Below are positions 4,971 to 21,202 of a DNA stretch of 45,040 nt, piece after piece. Position 1 is the stretch's first letter. The number at the start of each line of letters is the position of its first letter. The notes under the pieces were generated by a model, which made no database searches, was not told where the DNA came from, and was given only the letters and a program-made list of their open reading frames with translations. Position numbers and translations under genes: made by a program. The DNA comes from a plasmid, in the sequence record NZ_CP133434.1. One strand, 5' to 3'.

Positions 4971-5124
4971 AGGAGTAGGGGGCTAATATACCTGCAAGGC
5001 AGGATATTAACTCAGGAGATTGGGTGTGTGGTGTTTAGTCAATGCATTTGAATATTGTAACTAAAATATGTTTTTATTAAAGGCCGGAGGTGGTTAGCCC
5101 CCGGCCTTAGTTACGTTTCCGCCA

Positions 5125-5208
5125 TCAGCCCATCAACTGGAGAAGGTAGCGAATCAGTTCAAGAAGCGAGATTAGTGCCCCCAGAACGATGATTGCTTTA
5201 TCAATCAT
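5125..5208 (-). CDS. dinQ: DinQ-like type I toxin peptide (27 aa, MIDKAIIVLGALISLLELIRYLLQLMG)
   Basis: Translated by hand from the minus strand. Near-identical to the E. coli DinQ peptide as I recall it. The SD GGAG sits inside the perfect hairpin ctccatataatggag. Confidence 0.6.
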   Translation of the reverse strand: MIDKAIIVLGALISLLELIRYLLQLMG

Positions 5209-5249
5209 CCGTTTACTCCATTATATGGAGCAGACTCCCGATACTTACT

Positions 5250-5375
5250 CTTACACTGCCTGTCATATCGGTTGTTCTTCGGTGTTGGTTGAAGACAGTT
5301 CCACTCCAGCCAGAGCCACCAACTCAGGGCTGGAAAACACAAAAAAGCCCGATTACCCGTCGGGTTTTTTTTGTG
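5250..5375 (+). ncRNA. Candidate agrB-like antisense sRNA ending at a bidirectional terminator (5346-5373)
   Basis: Stem gcccgattacccgtcgggc followed by T8 on the plus strand. The element overlaps the toxin 5' leader and is repeated at 16620-16712. Confidence 0.3.
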
Positions 5376-6019
5376 CCTGTCGTTTGGCTGTACTTCCGTT
5401 TTTTCCCCTTCATTTGAGGGATTTTTCTTTCATTTTTTGTTGCAGCCAGTACCGCTGATCGCGTTGGCCAACAGAACGATGCCGTTACCGGCATTATCAT
5501 GAATCCCATTTTTTCAGTAAGTTGCAGCATACAAAGTAATTAAAAAAACGTCATTTTTTGTTGATGGATGCAGTAGCGGTGGTGTGCTACGTGAAATCTG
5601 GGAAATGCTGGCGGGTAATTGACTCAATTTTTTAATCTCCGCACCTGTTTTTTTGGACGTGCCAGCAATTATGACCTGAAGCAGAGGTGCGTCCGACAAC
5701 AAAAATTCCGATCACCAGAAAAAATTTTGGACATTTTTTCCGATAATGCATTTTTGTCCAGGGGGATATGAACTACAGGGCAGGGCGAAAAGGAAGCGGT
5801 TATCTTGAATATCCATAGGATATGGGCACATATGCCGGAATAGGGCACCAGATAAAGGAAATGAATTCAGTGTATGTTGTAACTAATAGGGTCTGGACAG
5901 AATCATCTGAACGTCCAGTCGGGCGCTAATCTATAATAAATGACCGTAGAAGGGCCATTTCTACGGCAAAGTTCTGGAGATGATAAAATAAGAGCCTTAA
6001 ACAATAAAAGGGTTTGCTT

Positions 6020-13022: not shown

Positions 13023-14924
13023 ATGGAAATAGTATCATTTAAAGTTTCTCAGTATAGGTCTATTTCAGGGGAGATATCCTCTGATAACTTTAATGGATTA
13101 ACCATTGTTGGGCAAAACAACAGTGGTAAAACAAACCTATTAAAAGCTATGAGGGTTTTTTTTGAAGGAAAATTTAATCCTGACTTATATGACTATGAAA
13201 AAGATAAGCCACATGGTGTTAAGCAAGGACAAACTAGTTTTGCTGTAAGATTTACTTTTTCTGAAAGTGAGCTAGATGATGTCTCTGAGGATTTGAGCCA
13301 AGACGATGATGATGACGATGATGACTCGATTATTGAACTTGGTGTTTTAGGGGAGCAAGAAGAACCTAGTAATTCTATTTCATTTGATGATGGCAGCTCT
13401 AAACAACAAGAATCAAAACCAACTCAATCAAGAGGCAGAAAGCTAAGTTTGAGAGATAGATATTTGCAGCTGTTTAACATGATTGATGACTCCAGGTTAA
13501 ATTCACCTCAAAACGAAGTGACCGTACATCTGACAATATCTAATAAAAACAATTACTTTTACACTGTCTTTAAAGGTTACAAGAGGAAACCTGAAGTAAC
13601 TTCCTCCATGTATACATCTGTTGAAAGAAGGTTCATAGAAAAAATACTTTCTAGTTTTGAGTGTGTGTATATACCATCGTCAAAAAGTATTGATGATATA
13701 TATCATAATCTATTAGTTCCATATGTTAGGAGTGAAGTAGCTTCAGCCATGAAAACATCGGTTCAAGTGATTCATGATAAACTGTTGGAAGTGTCTGAAA
13801 AGATAACAAATGAAATGATTCTAAGCGGTATAGATGACTGTAGCTTTATGATTAAAGCTCCGCCATCTCTTGATGAGTTATTTGGTCGCTTTGAGGTTTC
13901 AATAAAAGATACTATTGAGAATGTGATATCGAGTAAAGGTATGGGGCTACAATGCTTATCTTTATTTTCTTCATTTAAATCTATTTCAGAGAGAAAACTT
14001 ACTCTAGGTAAGAAAACGATTTGGATGGTTGAGGAGCCTGAGTCTTTCTTGCATCCCTCATTAGGCCGGTCATGTAATCACATTTTCAAATCACTGATGG
14101 ATGTTGCTTATGTTCTTATTACAACTCATTCCTTATCATTTGTCAGTGATGAGCCAAGTAAGATCATTGAGTTATATAAAGATGACGCCGGTGTTACAAA
14201 AGATAAAAAGCATGAAAAAAGATTTAATGCAGTTGCAAGCATAAGAGAAAATCTTGGGGTCAGATTTTCTGATTTCTTTAACATATCAAGTAGTGCAGTT
14301 TTCGTTGAAGGTATCACCGACAAACAATATATAGAATCAATATTGAAATTGACATCTGAAGATGATGAGTTTAAGAACAGATGGCCTTTTCTGAGGAGTG
14401 CTAAAGTTGATGAGTTTGGTGGAGTCAGTCAACTTGGGGGATTCTTGAAAGGGTGCTACGAGTTTATTTCTAAAGATGTCCCCGTAATATCTGTTTTTGA
14501 CGGTGATGAAGCTGGGGTCAAAGAAAGAACCAGATTACAAAGCTACTTTGGTAAAAAACAAATTAGATTTGAGTCAAATAAAGACTATATTTCTGTAAGA
14601 AGTGGTTTTGCTATTGAAGGCCTCTTCCCTGACGATTTCATTTCTGACGCAATGGAAACCCATCCGTCGTGGTTTATCGGAGGAAAATCTGTTGATGCCG
14701 ATGATGTAATTGAACCATTCAAAGTGCAAGATAATAAAAAAACTAACTTATTAAATTTCTTCCTGGAAAAATGTCGTGTTCAACCTATATGCGGTTGGAT
14801 TTCTCGGTGGGAAAAGGTGTTTAACGTCATAGACTCAGCCTTGCGAGATAAAAGTGAATCCATCACAAACAAAAAACGAACCGAAGATATTTCCGGTAAC
14901 ACTTCAGATCATCAAGCTGCATAA
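13023..14924 (+). CDS. OLD-family (or fused PARIS AriAB-like) ABC-type ATPase plus Toprim nuclease, candidate anti-phage protein
   Basis: Walker A GQNNSGKTNLLKAM. ABC signature/Walker B region IWMVEEPESFLHP with H-loop ITTHS. C-terminal Toprim VFVEGITDKQYIE with ISVFDGDEAG. A poly-Asp insert DDDDDDDD is present. AT-rich. Confidence 0.7.
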   Translation: MEIVSFKVSQYRSISGEISSDNFNGLTIVGQNNSGKTNLLKAMRVFFEGKFNPDLYDYEKDKPHGVKQGQTSFAVRFTFSESELDDVSEDLSQDDDDDDDDSIIELGVLGEQEEPSNSISFDDGSSKQQESKPTQSRGRKLSLRDRYLQLFNMIDDSRLNSPQNEVTVHLTISNKNNYFYTVFKGYKRKPEVTSSMYTSVERRFIEKILSSFECVYIPSSKSIDDIYHNLLVPYVRSEVASAMKTSVQVIHDKLLEVSEKITNEMILSGIDDCSFMIKAPPSLDELFGRFEVSIKDTIENVISSKGMGLQCLSLFSSFKSISERKLTLGKKTIWMVEEPESFLHPSLGRSCNHIFKSLMDVAYVLITTHSLSFVSDEPSKIIELYKDDAGVTKDKKHEKRFNAVASIRENLGVRFSDFFNISSSAVFVEGITDKQYIESILKLTSEDDEFKNRWPFLRSAKVDEFGGVSQLGGFLKGCYEFISKDVPVISVFDGDEAGVKERTRLQSYFGKKQIRFESNKDYISVRSGFAIEGLFPDDFISDAMETHPSWFIGGKSVDADDVIEPFKVQDNKKTNLLNFFLEKCRVQPICGWISRWEKVFNVIDSALRDKSESITNKKRTEDISGNTSDHQAA

Positions 14925-15030: not shown

Positions 15031-15310
15031 GCGGGCATCGTACTTGGGTTCCACTTGGAAAATGGAAAACATCCTACGCTAAGAGCGTTTTTTAAACAAC
15101 CGGCTTGTTGGTTTTTACGAGATACTGTGCAGTTGAAGGAACAAGATAAAGGAATTAAAGACCCTTTAGTACCATACTTTCATGAAATTTTCCCATATTT
15201 TCTTTTAGATCGTGCAACAGCGAAAAGACGTAGGAATTGGCTTGATTAGCCGCAATACTATTTCTGGACAGAATGGCGAGGAATTAAACGAGAGGCGTAA
15301 AAAAGGCCGC

Positions 15311-15490
15311 TTACGCGACCTCAGCCTTTTGCGGTTTTGGCTTGGTGATATACCACGATAGACAACCGACAATAAAACTCATGAACATTCCAGTAAAACG
15401 ATCATCGATGCCTGGAAACAGGCAACCGACAAACATCGCAACAGGGAAAGGAAGAAGTAAACAGCGCCCCAAAATGCTCATAAAATCCAT
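15311..15490 (-). CDS. Small hydrophobic membrane protein (59 aa) immediately downstream of toxin module 2
   Basis: Strong SD aaggaggtg 5 nt before ATG (MDFMSILGR...). Preceded by the hairpin gggcaggaagtgcaccgcttcctgccc. Confidence 0.35.
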   Translation of the reverse strand: MDFMSILGRCLLLPFPVAMFVGCLFPGIDDRFTGMFMSFIVGCLSWYITKPKPQKAEVA

Positions 15491-15556
15491 AACACCTCCT
15501 TTGTTAAAGGGCAGGAAGCGGTGCACTTCCTGCCCTTAGTTACGTTTCCGCAGTCA

Positions 15557-15652
15557 TCAATCGATGAACTGACGGATCAGTTCCAGAACTGCAATCAGCG
15601 CGTTTGCAAGCGCAGCTACCGCCCTCAGAACGATGATTAACAGGTTAATCAT
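15557..15652 (-). CDS. DinQ/TisB-like type I toxin paralog (31 aa, MINLLIIVLRAVAALANALIAVLELIRQFID)
   Basis: Hand translation. The SD sits inside the hairpin ctccatttatggag, as in module 1. Confidence 0.5.
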   Translation of the reverse strand: MINLLIIVLRAVAALANALIAVLELIRQFID

Positions 15653-15957
15653 CCGTTTTCTCCATAAATGGAGTAAAGACACCGTGGCTTGCTCTTACGC
15701 TGCCTGTCACCACGGCTTCTCTTCGTCTTGTCAGTTGTAGAGAGTCTCACTCCTACCAGAGCACAGATAACCAGCACCACCTGTATTACCTGTCAGGACT
15801 TTGAAGCTGTTCATGCCGCATTTAGCGGAATGCAGGGAAAGACTCACCACAGCACTAACCCTCTGATTATACGTTTATCTAACTTTCAAGCAAACCGTTA
15901 ACGCGTAGTCACCGCCTGTCATATTGCATAATCAGGCTTCACGGATTATCATACTGT

Positions 15958-16050
15958 TGTCAGTTGTAGAGAGTTTCTCTTCCGGGCGAGTTACCAGCTC
16001 GTACCGGAACTGTAAAAAAGCCGACCTCACCAGTCGGTTTTTTTACGTCT
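15958..16050 (+). ncRNA. Candidate agrB-like antisense sRNA (second of two tandem repeats) with terminator
   Basis: Repeat unit beginning gtcagttgtagagagt (also at 15730). Terminator ccgacctcaccagtcgg plus T7 at 16018-16048. Confidence 0.3.
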
Positions 16051-16212
16051 GCAGTTTCCCGCTTCATTTAGATCTATTTTAAATGAATAAATTTTCTGCG
16101 GCAAACCCAACGACGTTGGGTCGTTAGTGTAAATAATTGTTCAAAACTCATAAACACTCCTTTGTTAAAGGGCAGGAAGCGGTAAACGTCTCTCCCTTAG
16201 TTAAGCCATCAA

Positions 16213-16296
16213 TCACTCGATTAGTTTCTGAATGGCAATCAGCGCGTTTGCAATGGCGAGCACAGCCCTGAGAACGATGATTAACAGATTCATCAT
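16213..16296 (-). CDS. DinQ-like type I toxin paralog (27 aa, MMNLLIIVLRAVLAIANALIAIQKLIE)
   Basis: Hand translation. No SD hairpin is recognisable, so this copy is possibly degenerate. Confidence 0.4.
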   Translation of the reverse strand: MMNLLIIVLRAVLAIANALIAIQKLIE

Positions 16297-16614
16297 CCGT
16301 TTCTCTAGGTTGATACTGGAGGAAGTCACCGTAGCTTGCTCATACATCCCTGTCACAACGGCTCTCTCACATTGTTGGATGTAGAGTACCTTCCCTCTAC
16401 CAGAGCACTGAACACAGCACCACCCGTTTGTTCAGCCAGGACTTTAATTCGTTCATCCCCAGATAGCGCAGGGGTTAGAAGCAAGGGAGACACACTGTAC
16501 AGCGCCAACACAAAGATTATACAGATGCATGCATAAAATTCATTTAAAGAAATTACCATTGACAGACAATCTGAAGTCAAACTAGACAACAGGTGTCTAG
16601 TGCCATAATACTAT

Positions 16615-16712
16615 GAGTGTTGGGTGTAGAGTATCTTCCTCCAGTCAGAGCCACCAACTCAAGGCTGGAAAACACAAAAAAGCCAAATTACCAGTCGGTT
16701 TTTTTTGTGCTT
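16615..16712 (+). ncRNA. Candidate agrB-like antisense sRNA, a copy of the 5281-5375 element
   Basis: ~85% identical to 5281-5375. Preceded by TAGACA...CATAAT promoter-like hexamers flanking the palindrome ctagacaacaggtgtctag. Confidence 0.3.
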
Positions 16713-16916
16713 GTCGTTCAGCTGTACTTCCGTTTTTTCCCCCTTCATTGAAGAAGTAGTAGGCAGAGCAGAAATGACTTCATGAATTATTTTTATAGAC
16801 CGTCCTGTAAAAGTTTAAGTCATAAAGCCATGCAGAATGCTCACCTCCCAAGATCTTGGTTTTTATAAGGTGTAATGATAATGTAAGCTAATGTTTCACA
16901 TACCAAAGGAAATACC

Positions 16917-18245
16917 ATGAGCCGCAGGGAATTGTTCAGCGAATTTCTTGAAAATTTGAATCTTGACCTTAAACAGGCAAAAAAGATCAGCTATCACTAT
17001 CGAAAAATAACCAAGTCATTAAATCTTGCGTTCAGAGGAACGAGTTCCCGGGTAGCAAACCGCTTGAAAGTGGGGTCAGTAGGCAGACATACTGCAATAA
17101 AAGGCATATCCGATCTGGACATGCTTTATATTATGCCCCCCAATCAGTATGAATATTATAACCGTAAGGATAATGGTCAGGCTGCATTGCTTACAGATGT
17201 CAGAAACATTTTAGCGGAAGAATATCCTGACCAGACGGTGAAAAAGGACAGACTGGTTGTTCAGATCATCTTTAAAAACTTTTATGTCGAGGTTCAACCT
17301 GTATTCAGACAGGATGATGGCAGCTTTAAATTCCCTGAAAGCTATAATGGGGGAGCATGGCGCATTACAAAACCTCTTCACGAAAAGGCGGCTATGACCG
17401 CATTTTCGCGAGATAAATCCAATAATCTGCGCAAGCTGTGTAAAATGATCAGAGCCTGGAAGAACCTGCATGGCGTCAATATGGGGGGCTTACTGATAGA
17501 TACACTGGCGTATCGATTTCTTTCATCAACATCAGATTATGACAATACCGGAAATGGCAGCCTGGGAGCCCTCGCCAGAGACTTTTTTGAATATCTGTCA
17601 AATGAGGAGAAAAGGGAAAGGTATCTCGCGTTAGGCAGTAATCAGTATGTACGTGTTAAATCTCCCTGGTTTGGCCGGGCAGCGAAACATGCGTATGAAT
17701 TATGTTGTGATGCCTTAGACGCTGAGGGGTCTGCCAGTGAAAATGACCTCTGGCGCGAAGTGTTCGGACGAGCCTTCCCCAGACGTAAGGTGGGTATTAT
17801 GGAAGCCAGCCTTGGTCTGGAATCGCATGCGGCAGATGCAGCTCCCTGGATCGATACCGAAGAATTTATAGAGGATAAATATCCGGTGGATATCAGGCAC
17901 TCACTCAACCTTGACTGTACCGTAACCCAAGATGGTTTCCCTCCCAGAAGCCTGAGAGAGATGCTTACTAGAGGATTTCGCCTCTCCGCTCGGAAATCTC
18001 TCCTTTTCCGGGCAGACTTGACAGAAATGGAGGCAGAGGAACCCTACACCGTTATGTGGAAGGTACTGAACGTGGGTGACGAAGCACGCAGAAGAAATAT
18101 GATCCGGGGACAAATCGTTTCGGACGGCGGCTACTGTACAAAGAAAGAGGCCACCGACTTCCGCGGAGATCACGTGGTAGAATGCTATGTGATAAAAAAT
18201 GAGGTTGTGGTTGCCCGGGCCCAGATTGAAGTTCCCATAAACTGA
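16917..18245 (+). CDS. SMODS / CD-NTase-like nucleotidyltransferase (CBASS-type cyclase) with a C-terminal extension
   Basis: Pol-beta NTase signature GSVGRHTAIKGISDLDMLYIM (GS...DxD). Third acidic motif at VEVQP. SD aagga. AT-rich upstream region. Confidence 0.6.
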   Translation: MSRRELFSEFLENLNLDLKQAKKISYHYRKITKSLNLAFRGTSSRVANRLKVGSVGRHTAIKGISDLDMLYIMPPNQYEYYNRKDNGQAALLTDVRNILAEEYPDQTVKKDRLVVQIIFKNFYVEVQPVFRQDDGSFKFPESYNGGAWRITKPLHEKAAMTAFSRDKSNNLRKLCKMIRAWKNLHGVNMGGLLIDTLAYRFLSSTSDYDNTGNGSLGALARDFFEYLSNEEKRERYLALGSNQYVRVKSPWFGRAAKHAYELCCDALDAEGSASENDLWREVFGRAFPRRKVGIMEASLGLESHAADAAPWIDTEEFIEDKYPVDIRHSLNLDCTVTQDGFPPRSLREMLTRGFRLSARKSLLFRADLTEMEAEEPYTVMWKVLNVGDEARRRNMIRGQIVSDGGYCTKKEATDFRGDHVVECYVIKNEVVVARAQIEVPIN

Positions 18246-18252
18246 GGTTTTT

Positions 18253-18828
18253 ATGACGCAATCAGAGATGCTGAAATTAATTGCCAGACATGGTTATAAC
18301 GTTGGATTTGGCGCTAAGAAAAACTTTGCCACCTATGATCTAATTTGTAAGGCATCCGGTTGGATTAGCTTTATTTCTCTTGCTGTCGGTGTGTTCGCTC
18401 TTTTTATTCCTGAGCTAGCCACAAACGTAATTTCCGCGATATTAATTATATTTGGTGTTGCTACAATGTACATTCAGTTTTATGACTCGGAAAAGCAGAG
18501 TTATGAAAGTGCGGGGATTGAGCAGACAAAAATTTTTAATGAACTTGAAGTTATTTACCGCAACGTAAAAAGCGATGCAAACTTTGACTATCAGCATACA
18601 CAACAATCCATCGACGCTATCATGTCCCGGTTTTACGGCACGGTCATCAGCAAACAGATCTTCGGAAGTAACTGGTACGCACATTATAAATTTTACTGTG
18701 AATTTGAGAAAGCATGGGTTGAAGAAGAACTAAACTTGACACTGAAGGACAAAATCCCGCTTTCGCTCTGCTTTCTCGCCGGTCTGGCAATCATTTTCAT
18801 TATAGCTGTCATCTGGAAAATGCTCTGA
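18253..18828 (+). CDS. 2TM plus C-terminal TM membrane effector (SLATT-like), partner of the SMODS gene
   Basis: Follows the NTase after a 7-nt gap. Hydrophobic helices at residues ~36-77 and 168-188. Confidence 0.5.
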   Translation: MTQSEMLKLIARHGYNVGFGAKKNFATYDLICKASGWISFISLAVGVFALFIPELATNVISAILIIFGVATMYIQFYDSEKQSYESAGIEQTKIFNELEVIYRNVKSDANFDYQHTQQSIDAIMSRFYGTVISKQIFGSNWYAHYKFYCEFEKAWVEEELNLTLKDKIPLSLCFLAGLAIIFIIAVIWKML

Positions 18829-19001: not shown

Positions 19002-19826
19002 TTGATATTTAGCAATGAACATAAGGAAGGTACTGTGGGAACAACAAAAGATTGGGTTATACAAGTCGAGGAAAGTCGCCGTGAGGAATGGATACGAGAG
19101 CGGCTTTCCAGCCCAGATCTTGAGGAAGATTCTGAAGAATGGCAGTTACTTGAAAAGGACTATGACGAGTATCAGGATTTTCTTTCTGATATGGCTATGG
19201 AAGAATATGAAACCGAAAAATGGTTAAAACAGCATCCACATACAGAAATTTATAAAATAGCAATAAACCTTTTAGAACAAATAAAAGAAGAGGGAAAACA
19301 ATCTACAAGTGAAGTTTTCATAAAAATGAAAATCGCATACATTGTGACAATAATGGAAAACTGTCTTAGCGAAATGATTAAAAGCGTTGTATTGTCACAT
19401 AACAGATATGTAGAAAATGCCATAAGAAACATAAATGAACTGAAAGCAAAGAATATCTCTCTGTCTGAATTGATAAATAAAGAGTCTAATGCAAACAAAT
19501 ATGTACAGGAGTACCTTTCAGATATTCTTTATCATAGAATCCAACTGGTAGTTGAAATATATAAAGCAGTCCTGCAACCTAAGCAATATCCACGTTTTCC
19601 ACTCAAAAATATCAATGAATTGATGAAACTGAGGCATGACATAGTTCATCGTAACGGGAAAACGAAAACAACGGATGAAAAGATACATACATTCAATACA
19701 GCTACGCTCAATGATGCGTTTAAAGTTGTAGAGGAGTTTCTTAATAACATGATGAATTTGATCAGTGATGCTGTTGAGCATCATGAGAATGAGCAGATAG
19801 CCAGAGATCTTGAAGACGAGTTTTGA
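19002..19826 (+). CDS. HEPN-motif protein A (acidic N-terminal region, C-terminal Rx4H)
   Basis: C-terminal KLRHDIVHRNG. A likely start is GTG 19032, which follows aaggaagg. AT-rich. Confidence 0.45.
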   Translation: MIFSNEHKEGTVGTTKDWVIQVEESRREEWIRERLSSPDLEEDSEEWQLLEKDYDEYQDFLSDMAMEEYETEKWLKQHPHTEIYKIAINLLEQIKEEGKQSTSEVFIKMKIAYIVTIMENCLSEMIKSVVLSHNRYVENAIRNINELKAKNISLSELINKESNANKYVQEYLSDILYHRIQLVVEIYKAVLQPKQYPRFPLKNINELMKLRHDIVHRNGKTKTTDEKIHTFNTATLNDAFKVVEEFLNNMMNLISDAVEHHENEQIARDLEDEF

Positions 19827-21202
19827 GTAGTATTTTTACTATTCTGAAGGATTCTCAGAAACAAATGGAGCAGTACATGGCAACAAAAAAATACGAACTA
19901 ACAAAAGAATACTTTTTTCATGGTGAATTTTGGCACCAACTTGATGATAACAAAGGAAGATTTTCAGCACGAATTGAATATTCACCGTACCATGGTCTGA
20001 TTCTAGATTATTGTATTTCTGACAGTGAAAGCCCCAGAACATGTGAAATATTATATGGAGTCTTAAATACTGGAGAAAGATGTACTCTAATTGGGAAATT
20101 TGATTTCACACAAGGGAATATTCATTTTGATAAAGGGATTATCCATACTGGAAGGCATGGATTTCCCATAATGCTATTCAATGATTTTTATGCTCCCGAC
20201 TCAAAGATAGAATATTGTGATTTATCCTTGCACGGATTGCAAGAATTTATCCACCCTCACGGTTTTTTCACTCAATTGAAACATTTAGAACATCCAATAT
20301 TTATCGCAAAAGGAAACCATTGGACTCTTCAACTTGTCAACCATGTATCTTTTAGCGTAATTGGTGATGATCTATTAAACATAATAAATTGCCAAAACAA
20401 AGCCGCACTGGAGAACATAATTCATCAACTAAAAAAGACAAAAGAATTATACCCTGATGCTTTTTTCTCCATTAGAAAAGAACTTGTTTTCTACTTTAGG
20501 ATAAAATCATCTAATGATTTAGGAATAGAAGACCATATATCAAAGTGCTGGGATATTTCCGGGTTATTTTCAATTCTTCTGAACAAACCGACTCTTCCTG
20601 AAGAAATAAACATAAAGTTCAAGGGAAATGGTTCGAAGACACCATGTCTCTTAACAACGGGGTTTGAACAAAGAACTATTGACCTAGCGCTGAGAGAAAT
20701 AAAACATCAACTCCTTCCAATAAACAGGAAGCATATTAATCTTGGAAAGATATTCTGCAAATGGTTCAAAATAGCAGAAAGATATATGCCATTGACAATA
20801 ACATATCAGTATGAAACCGGTTTTCGAACACTGCATCAAGCTCATACTGATATTATATTGTTTGCGACTCAATTAGAAGCAATAAACAAAACAATAGGTG
20901 GCTCAAAAAATGAAAAATACATGAAACCCATTAATGAATATGCAAGTTTGTTTCTTATTCAAGAGATAGAGATGTTTTTTAAGAAATTCAACAATAAATC
21001 TATTGGTGAAAATATTGCTACACTCAGAAATGAATTAGCACATGTTGACCGCAAAAAGGAGTTAATGAACATATTGACGATTGGTGATTATGTTAAAATT
21101 GGAAACTACCTAAAAACAATTGTAACATCTTATCTGCTATCAGATTTAGGAATCAATAACATTATTATTGAAAAATATCAGGCTCAGACAATTCAAGAGT
21201 AA
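19823..21202 (+). CDS. HEPN-motif protein B (large N-terminal unknown domain, C-terminal Rx4H)
   Basis: IATLRNELAHVDRK near the C-terminus. Start overlaps the stop of gene A (TTG 19823), with an alternative ATG at 19877 preceded by ggag. Confidence 0.45.
   Translation: MSSIFTILKDSQKQMEQYMATKKYELTKEYFFHGEFWHQLDDNKGRFSARIEYSPYHGLILDYCISDSESPRTCEILYGVLNTGERCTLIGKFDFTQGNIHFDKGIIHTGRHGFPIMLFNDFYAPDSKIEYCDLSLHGLQEFIHPHGFFTQLKHLEHPIFIAKGNHWTLQLVNHVSFSVIGDDLLNIINCQNKAALENIIHQLKKTKELYPDAFFSIRKELVFYFRIKSSNDLGIEDHISKCWDISGLFSILLNKPTLPEEINIKFKGNGSKTPCLLTTGFEQRTIDLALREIKHQLLPINRKHINLGKIFCKWFKIAERYMPLTITYQYETGFRTLHQAHTDIILFATQLEAINKTIGGSKNEKYMKPINEYASLFLIQEIEMFFKKFNNKSIGENIATLRNELAHVDRKKELMNILTIGDYVKIGNYLKTIVTSYLLSDLGINNIIIEKYQAQTIQE

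Follow-up and report, generated by a model that had tools for sequence, protein, structure and literature searches.

A probable tandem of two DqlB/AgrB-type toxin-antitoxin units on an IncX1 plasmid, one apparently intact and one with a crippled toxin arm

Gene content of the interval and identity of the two units

The window analysed in this study is a 45,040-nucleotide (nt) stretch of a plasmid (sequence record NZ_CP133434.1). Within it, the interval 15541-16745 had been described in an initial annotation as two tandem type I toxin modules, each consisting of a DinQ-like toxin and agrA/agrB-like antisense repeats, and a related module 1 is located outside the interval at 5.1-5.4 kb. Based on homology, anatomy, complementarity and defects relative to orthologues, all of which were observed directly, we conclude with a probability of about 0.85 that, in this interval, two type I toxin-antitoxin (plasmid addiction) units of the DqlB/AgrB kind lie in tandem on an IncX1 plasmid, of which unit 2 is intact while the toxin arm of unit 3 is crippled. 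These units are referred to as modules 2 and 3 in the following, and their features are listed below (SD, Shine-Dalgarno sequence; sRNA, small RNA; ORF, open reading frame; aa, amino acids).

15311-15490, minus strand: gene of a 59-aa predicted two-helix membrane protein (ORF; SD AAGGAGGT; no family match)
15507-15537, minus strand: hairpin of the toxin mRNA terminator in module 2 (12-bp stem, ΔG -24.4 kcal/mol)
15557-15652, minus strand: dqlB-2, intact gene of a 31-aa DqlB toxin (NF041473, 72.2 bits, E 2e-20; RefSeq dqlB)
15660-15673, minus strand: SD hairpin CUCCAUUUAUGGAG of module 2, with the SD GGAG sequestered (15660-15663, ctcc on the plus strand; sequence and folding)
15730-15767, minus strand: putative AgrB-2 target site in the dqlB-2 leader, at about +93 to +130 of the predicted transcript (alignment to the agrB-binding region of dinQ; RNAduplex)
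15859-15871, minus strand: predicted dqlB-2 transcriptional start site (+1, 15859) and -10 element TATAAT (15866-15871; alignment to dinQ)
15924-15952, plus strand: predicted agrB-2 promoter, TTGCAT, 17 nt, TATCAT (read from the sequence)
15960-16046, plus strand: agrB-2, gene of the AgrB antitoxin sRNA, terminator strong (RF02891, 56.1 bits, E 6e-7, full-length 1-84)
16143-16203, minus strand: left end of the second unit, with a remnant of the start and SD of the 59-aa gene and a degraded toxin terminator hairpin (82% identical to 15482-15542)
16213-16296, minus strand: dqlB-3, truncated and divergent 27-aa DqlB gene (NF041473, 42.0 bits, E 6e-11)
16303-16322, minus strand: mutated SD region of module 3 (GGAG to AGAG, base 16306)
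16375-16411, minus strand: putative AgrB-3 target site in the dqlB-3 leader (alignment; RNAduplex)
16509-16521, minus strand: predicted dqlB-3 +1 (16509) and -10 element TATAAT (16516-16521; invariant GATTATAC block)
16583-16612, plus strand: promoter-like site before agrB-3, TAGACA, 18 nt, AATACT (consensus scan, weak alone)
16620-16707, plus strand: agrB-3, gene of an AgrB sRNA, terminator stem weakened (RF02891, 51.8 bits, E 5e-6)

The two peptides that had been noticed as paralogues of DinQ, MINLLIIVLRAVAALANALIAVLELIRQFID in module 2 and MMNLLIIVLRAVLAIANALIAIQKLIE in module 3, are indeed type I toxins of this kind, on which NCBIfam, Rfam and RefSeq agree. Both score above the 35-bit cutoff of the NCBIfam model NF041473 (“DinQ-like type I toxin DqlB”), dqlB-3 just above it. 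Only agrB-2 and agrB-3 match the Rfam AgrB model RF02891 above its gathering score of 40 inside the interval. Because of these peptide and RNA family matches, the features are far beyond chance. In both modules, a hydrophobic single-helix toxin of about 27-31 aa that fits the DqlB model lies next to a divergent AgrB gene with a stem-loop and an intrinsic terminator (full-length Rfam matches, the terminator of module 3 being weakened), and AgrB shows complementarity in its 5′ part to a site within the toxin mRNA's 5′ untranslated region (5′UTR), well upstream of the SD. A dinQ-type leader with a -10 element and the SD hidden in a hairpin can be seen in module 2; in module 3, the SD reads AGAG and the hairpin is gone.

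The 1.7-kb region 15200-16900 is 100% identical in several Salmonella and E. coli plasmids, which are typed as IncX1 in line with the earlier guess of an IncX plasmid. On these identical plasmids, RefSeq annotates “dqlB: DinQ-like type I toxin DqlB” twice and a “dinQ” gene at the position of module 1. The tandem is carried by about 120 PLSDB records (at least 80% of the tandem length), and a sensitive BLAST search finds matches to either module in more than 5000 PLSDB records. Three toxin copies on one plasmid had been considered unusual, a view that neither these records nor the RefSeq annotation bear out. The finding is real but ordinary, since the system is already known and its genes are already annotated. 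Kristiansen et al. defined and named the dql family in 2016 and also found some strains with several dql genes (PMC5066626); the validation of the family as a plasmid addiction system followed in 2025, with IncX3 and IncL plasmids, and dqlB is present in 53.3% of IncX plasmids (PMC12365149).

Module 2 and its relatives

Module 2 looks intact in all its elements. The SD hairpin (ctccataaatggag, 15660-15673), described initially as kept in module 2 and missing from module 3, shows exactly this distribution; in module 2, it folds with 5 bp, and the unpaired probability of the SD is at most 0.03. The agrB-2 terminator has a ΔG of -16.4. Codon differences in dqlB-2 are mostly synonymous, with a synonymous to nonsynonymous ratio of 5:2 relative to the IncX1 plasmid pEA24_4 and of 8:3 relative to an IncX4 orthologue.

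The closest system with experimental data is agrB-dqlB of IncX3 plasmids (pOXA-484/pOXA-181 type, PMC12317039), for which we used pSTIB_IncX3_OXA_181 as the representative. Module 2 is 95.4% identical to this locus over about 500 bp. Both have the SD hairpin, the target, the -10 elements, the AgrB body and its terminator, and in both agrB is present once while agrA is missing. The two loci are identical in the SD hairpin and in the predicted agrB-2 promoter, and the toxin of module 2 differs by a single residue (V22I) from the validated IncX3 toxin. The cloning primers of that study, TF21 and TF22, fit this type of locus, with an exact match of TF21 to a plasmid identical to the window. Module 2 differs from the IncX3 locus in that its toxin terminator is of another type and is followed by the 59-aa gene, and in that a second, degenerate unit is also present. 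The agrB-dqlB locus of pOXA-484 is toxic, is rescued by agrB and stabilises its plasmid; agrB was found in that study, agrA was not (PMC12317039).

More distant is the DqlB-agrB system of the IncL plasmid pOXA-48, an addiction module that acts by post-segregational killing and shows a 35-nt complementarity in the 5′UTR (PMC12365149). It resembles the modules described here in the DqlB peptide, the trans-acting divergent agrB and the complementarity of about 35 nt to the toxin 5′UTR, but is only about 72% identical over the toxin and part of the leader and is present as a single copy. Toxicity of the peptide, rescue by AgrB and plasmid stabilisation have been demonstrated experimentally only in the approximately 95%-identical IncX3 orthologue and in pOXA-48, and by analogy may be expected of the present system.

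The chromosomal dinQ/agrA/agrB locus of E. coli (Weel-Sneve 2013; Kristiansen 2016, PMC5066626) has a homologous toxin and leader, a transcript starting with GUUAG, an SD hairpin, a target at about +90 to +120 and a homologous AgrB in a divergent, non-overlapping arrangement. Unlike the plasmid modules, it is not an addiction module and contains agrA, a second, non-functional paralogue that is missing from the plasmids.

Pairing between AgrB RNAs and toxin leaders

Using RNAduplex, we calculated how nt 1-45 of every sRNA pair with every leader. Both cognate pairs form long helices starting from nt 1 of the sRNA: 18 uninterrupted bp for AgrB-2 with the dqlB-2 leader (-52.0 kcal/mol) and 21 for AgrB-3 with the dqlB-3 leader (-52.8 kcal/mol). 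In comparison, the cross pairs reach only -37.2 kcal/mol (AgrB-2 with the dqlB-3 leader, longest helix 8 bp) and -38.4 kcal/mol (AgrB-3 with the dqlB-2 leader, longest helix 9 bp). The resulting gap of about 15 kcal/mol has the size of that between the functional agrB (-66.6 kcal/mol) and the non-functional agrA (-51.1 kcal/mol) on dinQ of E. coli, which served as controls. When orthologues are added, three specificity classes can be distinguished: a dinQ type (module 1), an IncX3 type (module 2) and an IncX1/X4 type (module 3). Because of this gap and the separate specificity classes, cross-talk is unlikely, and judging from thermodynamics only, modules 2 and 3 probably do not regulate each other.

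Decay of module 3

The leader and AgrB of module 3 are of the type found in single-module IncX1 and IncX4 loci (pEA24_4 and pBS74R-D_3), to which they are 89-93% identical. These loci show the same layout of 59-aa gene, dqlB and agrB as the ancestral unit and keep what module 3 has lost: the SD hairpin in intact form, strong terminators and a toxin of 31 aa. Its closest intact relative is the single-copy locus of pEA24_4. Compared with this locus, the change at base 16306 not only alters the SD core but also breaks the CUCCAG/CUGGAG hairpin (ctccag...ctggag in pEA24_4, ctctag...ctggag in the window), so that a 6-bp SD hairpin is predicted in pEA24_4 and not in module 3. The ORF of dqlB-3 encodes 27 instead of 31 aa owing to a 17-nt deletion and a diverged 3′ end, which amounts to a C-terminal truncation of 4 aa, and its codon differences to pEA24_4 are 7 nonsynonymous to 3 synonymous, the reverse of the tendency in dqlB-2 (2 to 5, or 3 to 8 against the IncX4 orthologue). 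The toxin terminator has a ΔG of -10.0 kcal/mol compared with -24.4 kcal/mol in module 2. The agrB-3 terminator, which contains two non-canonical pairs in the Rfam alignment, has a ΔG of -5.8 kcal/mol compared with -17.4 kcal/mol in pEA24_4 and pRHB24-C19_3, the terminator sequences of which are identical. In addition, the 59-aa gene of unit 3 is reduced to a few codons, and the degraded second copy of its SD and hairpin region that had been suspected nearby was found at 16143-16203. Taken together, these comparisons support the earlier suggestion of a decaying copy: the SD of module 3 is mutated, the hairpin lost, the ORF shortened and both terminators weakened relative to the intact orthologue, pointing to a crippled toxin arm.

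The plasmid pRHB24-C19_3 represents a second lineage of the tandem and carries the same lesions in the toxin arm, including the toxin terminator defect, while its AgrB-3 terminator is intact. Because only the toxin-arm lesions are shared, the toxin arm decayed first and the sRNA terminator later in the lineage of the window.

The strongest alternative is that both modules are fully functional and mutually insulated, the changes in module 3 being neutral or adaptive in that they lower translation and result in a 27-aa toxin of DinQ length. The open ORF of dqlB-3, which passes the DqlB model, the conserved -10 elements of module 3 and a cognate pairing that is both maintained and distinct from that of module 2 would be expected in this case, and the presence of the same toxin-arm state in two diverged tandem lineages shows that it is persistent. 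On the other hand, four independent lesions all point towards loss (SD core, SD hairpin, toxin terminator and AgrB terminator), the ORF has suffered a deletion at its 3′ end, and nonsynonymous changes outnumber synonymous ones in dqlB-3, unlike in dqlB-2. Moreover, the intact leader of pEA24_4 is a better pairing partner for AgrB-3 (-60.2 kcal/mol, 23 bp) than the dqlB-3 leader. We therefore regard full function of module 3 as unlikely, at roughly one chance in five, and decay as the better description, although residual function may be possible.

The preference of AgrB-3 for an intact IncX1-type dqlB leader also allows a more speculative view, in which module 3 would be a unit with a dead toxin and a live antitoxin that is kept as an “anti-addiction” device: a cell carrying it could survive the displacement of a competing, incompatible IncX1 plasmid with this intact toxin gene. 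We consider this doubtful, and less probable than full function of the module. If it were true, the plasmid would, together with the scar in module 1, record a turnover in which a new specificity class is gained and the old ones then decay.

The region comprising the module 3 leader and AgrB-3 (16330-16750) differs by about 4-5% from both pRHB24-C19_3 and pEA24_4, although identity is about 98% in the remainder of the tandem. Several of the variant bases in this region (ggctggaaaacacaaaaaagcc, gctgtacttccg) match AgrB of module 1 and its flank, a pattern suggestive of gene conversion involving modules 1 and 3.

Repeats and target sites

A repeat search revealed a family of direct repeats in four copies (15728-15767, 15957-15996, 16372-16411 and 16617-16656), so that each toxin is accompanied by two repeat units as originally described. 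The search also returned the larger duplication of about 661 bp, in which the toxin ORF is 82%, the terminator and SD region 82% and the sRNA terminator 80% identical between the copies. In each pair, a terminator made of an A-run, a hairpin and a T-run closes the second unit, as had been noted, and each of these terminators lies within an Rfam AgrB match.

From this arrangement it had been concluded that two antisense sRNA genes, one agrA-like and one agrB-like, lie in tandem behind each toxin, as in the arsR-gor region of E. coli, where tandem agrA and agrB genes do exist. We aligned both modules with the gor-dinQ-agrA-agrB region of E. coli K-12 and found that the toxin-proximal repeat does not correspond to agrA, but aligns with the agrB-binding site in the leader of the dinQ mRNA (G88-A119 in PMC5066626). 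The approximately 90 nt that follow the proximal repeat share homology with the dinQ leader in its 5′ part (GCACCACC..CCAGGACTTTGA..) and end at the dinQ -10 element. Since this alignment places the proximal repeats at about +93 to +135 of the predicted toxin mRNAs, they are best described as AgrB targets and not as sRNA genes. A search of 15450-16800 gave no Rfam AgrB match on the proximal repeats even at E≤10. They are not preceded by a -10 element, the corresponding position reading TCTCTT or TCTCAC, and are followed neither by an AgrB stem-loop nor by a terminator or terminator-like site. The absence of agrA from the IncX3 locus, reported independently (PMC12317039), also argues against two sRNA genes, which we regard as very improbable here. 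By alignment, then, the proximal repeat is the predicted AgrB target in the toxin mRNA leader, the distal repeat alone represents an AgrB sRNA gene, and an equivalent of agrA is absent from either module. Thus, the AgrB-like antisense RNAs of the initial annotation are retained, while its agrA/agrB pair has to be replaced by a unit of toxin, target in the toxin leader and one AgrB. E. coli accordingly has three direct repeats (target, agrA and agrB) and the plasmid modules have two (target and agrB).

That the repeats are remnants of mobile elements, such as terminal repeats of an insertion sequence (IS) or a transposon, next to small ORFs arising by chance, can practically be discarded: although the region belongs to the accessory, mosaic part of the plasmid and a Tn3-family blaTEM transposon lies about 4 kb away, curated protein and RNA family models both match with significant E-values, the whole unit is collinear with E. 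coli dinQ-agrB and with the experimentally validated IncX3 locus, and neither a transposase nor inverted terminal repeats flank the modules. The repeat analysis and the alignment with dinQ-agrB likewise exclude an origin of the repeats from IS or transposon ends, the possibility that had been named as a refutation.

The junction between units 2 and 3 (16047-16142) is without a counterpart in the other unit and begins with a stretch (tttacgtc...aaatgaata) similar to the one that lies downstream of agrB in E. coli.

Predicted promoters and proposed mechanism

On the plus strand, the -10 block reads GATTATAC, which gives TATAAT on the minus strand, and it does not vary among four independent modules. 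The transcriptional start sites of the toxin genes were predicted at 15859 and 16509 from the alignment with dinQ; the E. coli +1 implied by this alignment reproduces the published SD coordinate 184. Both predicted toxin transcripts begin with GUU(A/G)G, like that of dinQ. In contrast to SOS-induced dinQ, which has a LexA box, no such box (CTGT-N8-ACAG, at most one mismatch) is present at 15855-15900 or 16505-16545; the only LexA-like match nearby is located inside the leader (15781-15796), and the number of such matches in the window is not above chance. The absence of a LexA box at the toxin promoters fits a constitutive, addiction-type expression rather than SOS control.

Based on these features and by analogy to dinQ/agrB, we propose the following mechanism. 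The toxin gene would be read leftwards (minus strand) from a σ70 promoter located some 200 nt upstream from its start codon, giving an mRNA with a long leader that hides the SD in a hairpin and holds the AgrB site of about 35 nt at approximately +93 to +135. A single AgrB RNA of about 87 nt would be made divergently from its own plus-strand promoter, with its first 20-40 nt complementary to the leader site. Pairing of AgrB would keep the SD closed or trigger cleavage, so that the membrane-depolarising peptide is not made. After loss of the plasmid, the labile AgrB would presumably decay before the stable toxin mRNA, DqlB would be made and the segregant killed.

For this plasmid, the promoters, +1 sites, expression, toxicity and lack of cross-talk are predictions from sequence, and several points weigh against the reading developed here. 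The promoters and +1 sites depend on the alignment to dinQ, and a consensus promoter scan listed neither the two toxin promoters nor the agrB-2 promoter, which we attribute to their weak -35 hexamers. In a thermodynamic test of the putative dinQ-style activation by processing, in which the +1 transcript is inert and a 5′-processed form active, the SD of module 2 stayed shut whichever 5′ truncation between 0 and 96 nt was folded, while the SD of the E. coli control opened modestly. The argument for orthogonality is a purely thermodynamic one based on duplex energies, and the counts of synonymous and nonsynonymous changes are small. Finally, module 3 keeps an open 27-aa frame, intact -10 elements and good cognate complementarity.

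Module 1

Module 1 contains two recognisable features:

5125-5208, minus strand: dinQ-type toxin gene (NF041472, 55.5 bits)
5285-5372, plus strand: AgrB match, the 3′ part of an AgrB gene fused to the toxin leader (Rfam, 70.6 bits)

In this module (5085-5376), the toxin leader reaches the target repeat and then runs straight into the AgrB stem-loop and terminator. An identical toxin is present at the same locus, downstream of a recombinase gene, on the IncX1 plasmid pR18.1630_29k, where the allele is complete with target, 5′ part of the leader, toxin -10 element, agrB promoter and agrB. Given this intact allele, module 1 of the window is a relic of a deletion by recombination within the CTCCAGCCAGAGC shared by the two direct repeats. 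The deletion took both promoters, that of the toxin gene and that of agrB, together with the leader's 5′ part, and no promoter-like site was found in what is left of the module. Module 1 is therefore most likely dead, judged by its sequence. We also considered that it might be a genuine antisense variant with overlap in cis, which was rejected because of the intact allele at the same locus and the lack of a promoter-like site. The fused form occurs in about 469 PLSDB records at a coverage of at least 80%, a count that may include some intact alleles. Module 1 had served as the reference copy in the initial annotation and is the most clearly dead of the three.

The modules thus illustrate two distinct routes of decay, by point mutations and by deletion between the direct repeats of target and sRNA. 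Module 2 is probably the only working module of the three, and a single probable working stability determinant among three copies is relevant to the design of plasmid curing or antitoxin mimics directed against IncX plasmids.

The 59-aa gene and genomic context

The 59-aa membrane-protein gene with its near-perfect SD was confirmed at 15311-15490. It had been placed between the modules, but is in fact located downstream of the module 2 toxin and not between modules 2 and 3; it starts directly after the dqlB-2 terminator hairpin, with its SD immediately past the hairpin. The protein has no Pfam or NCBIfam family match, and a homology search against 5.8 billion proteins returned only hypothetical proteins of IncX-type plasmids. 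Next to dqlB on IncX1 pEA24_4, an identical protein is encoded (one synonymous difference), and a protein with 75% aa identity, the N-terminal 31 aa being identical, is encoded beside dqlB in IncX4; the IncX3 locus is without the gene. Conservation of the 59-aa gene beside dqlB is thus limited to IncX1 and IncX4 plasmids. The gene belongs to the ancestral form of the duplicated unit and has been lost from unit 3.

The modules are situated in an accessory region with defence and antimicrobial resistance genes. The upstream neighbour is a gene for an OLD/GajA/AriA-like AAA_15 ATPase (13023-14924). Directly downstream of module 3 lies a pair of genes (16917-18828) resembling a type I cyclic oligonucleotide-based antiphage signalling system (CBASS):

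16917-18245: cyclase with SMODS and AGS-C domains (PADLOC Cyclase, 577 bits)
18253-18828: SLATT_6 effector with two transmembrane segments (273 bits)

Further downstream, at 19035-21202, two HEPN proteins are encoded, one of the RiboL-PSP-HEPN type and one with ApeA_NTD1 and HEPN_Apea. The toxin-antitoxin modules thus lie within a plasmid defence island. Between module 1 and the defence genes, a Tn3-family blaTEM transposon is inserted at approximately 7.0-11.8 kb, which carries a TEM beta-lactamase (665.8 bits), a serine recombinase and a Tn3 transposase (1157 bits). The plasmid pPNCS009991_S1 is otherwise identical and lacks this transposon.

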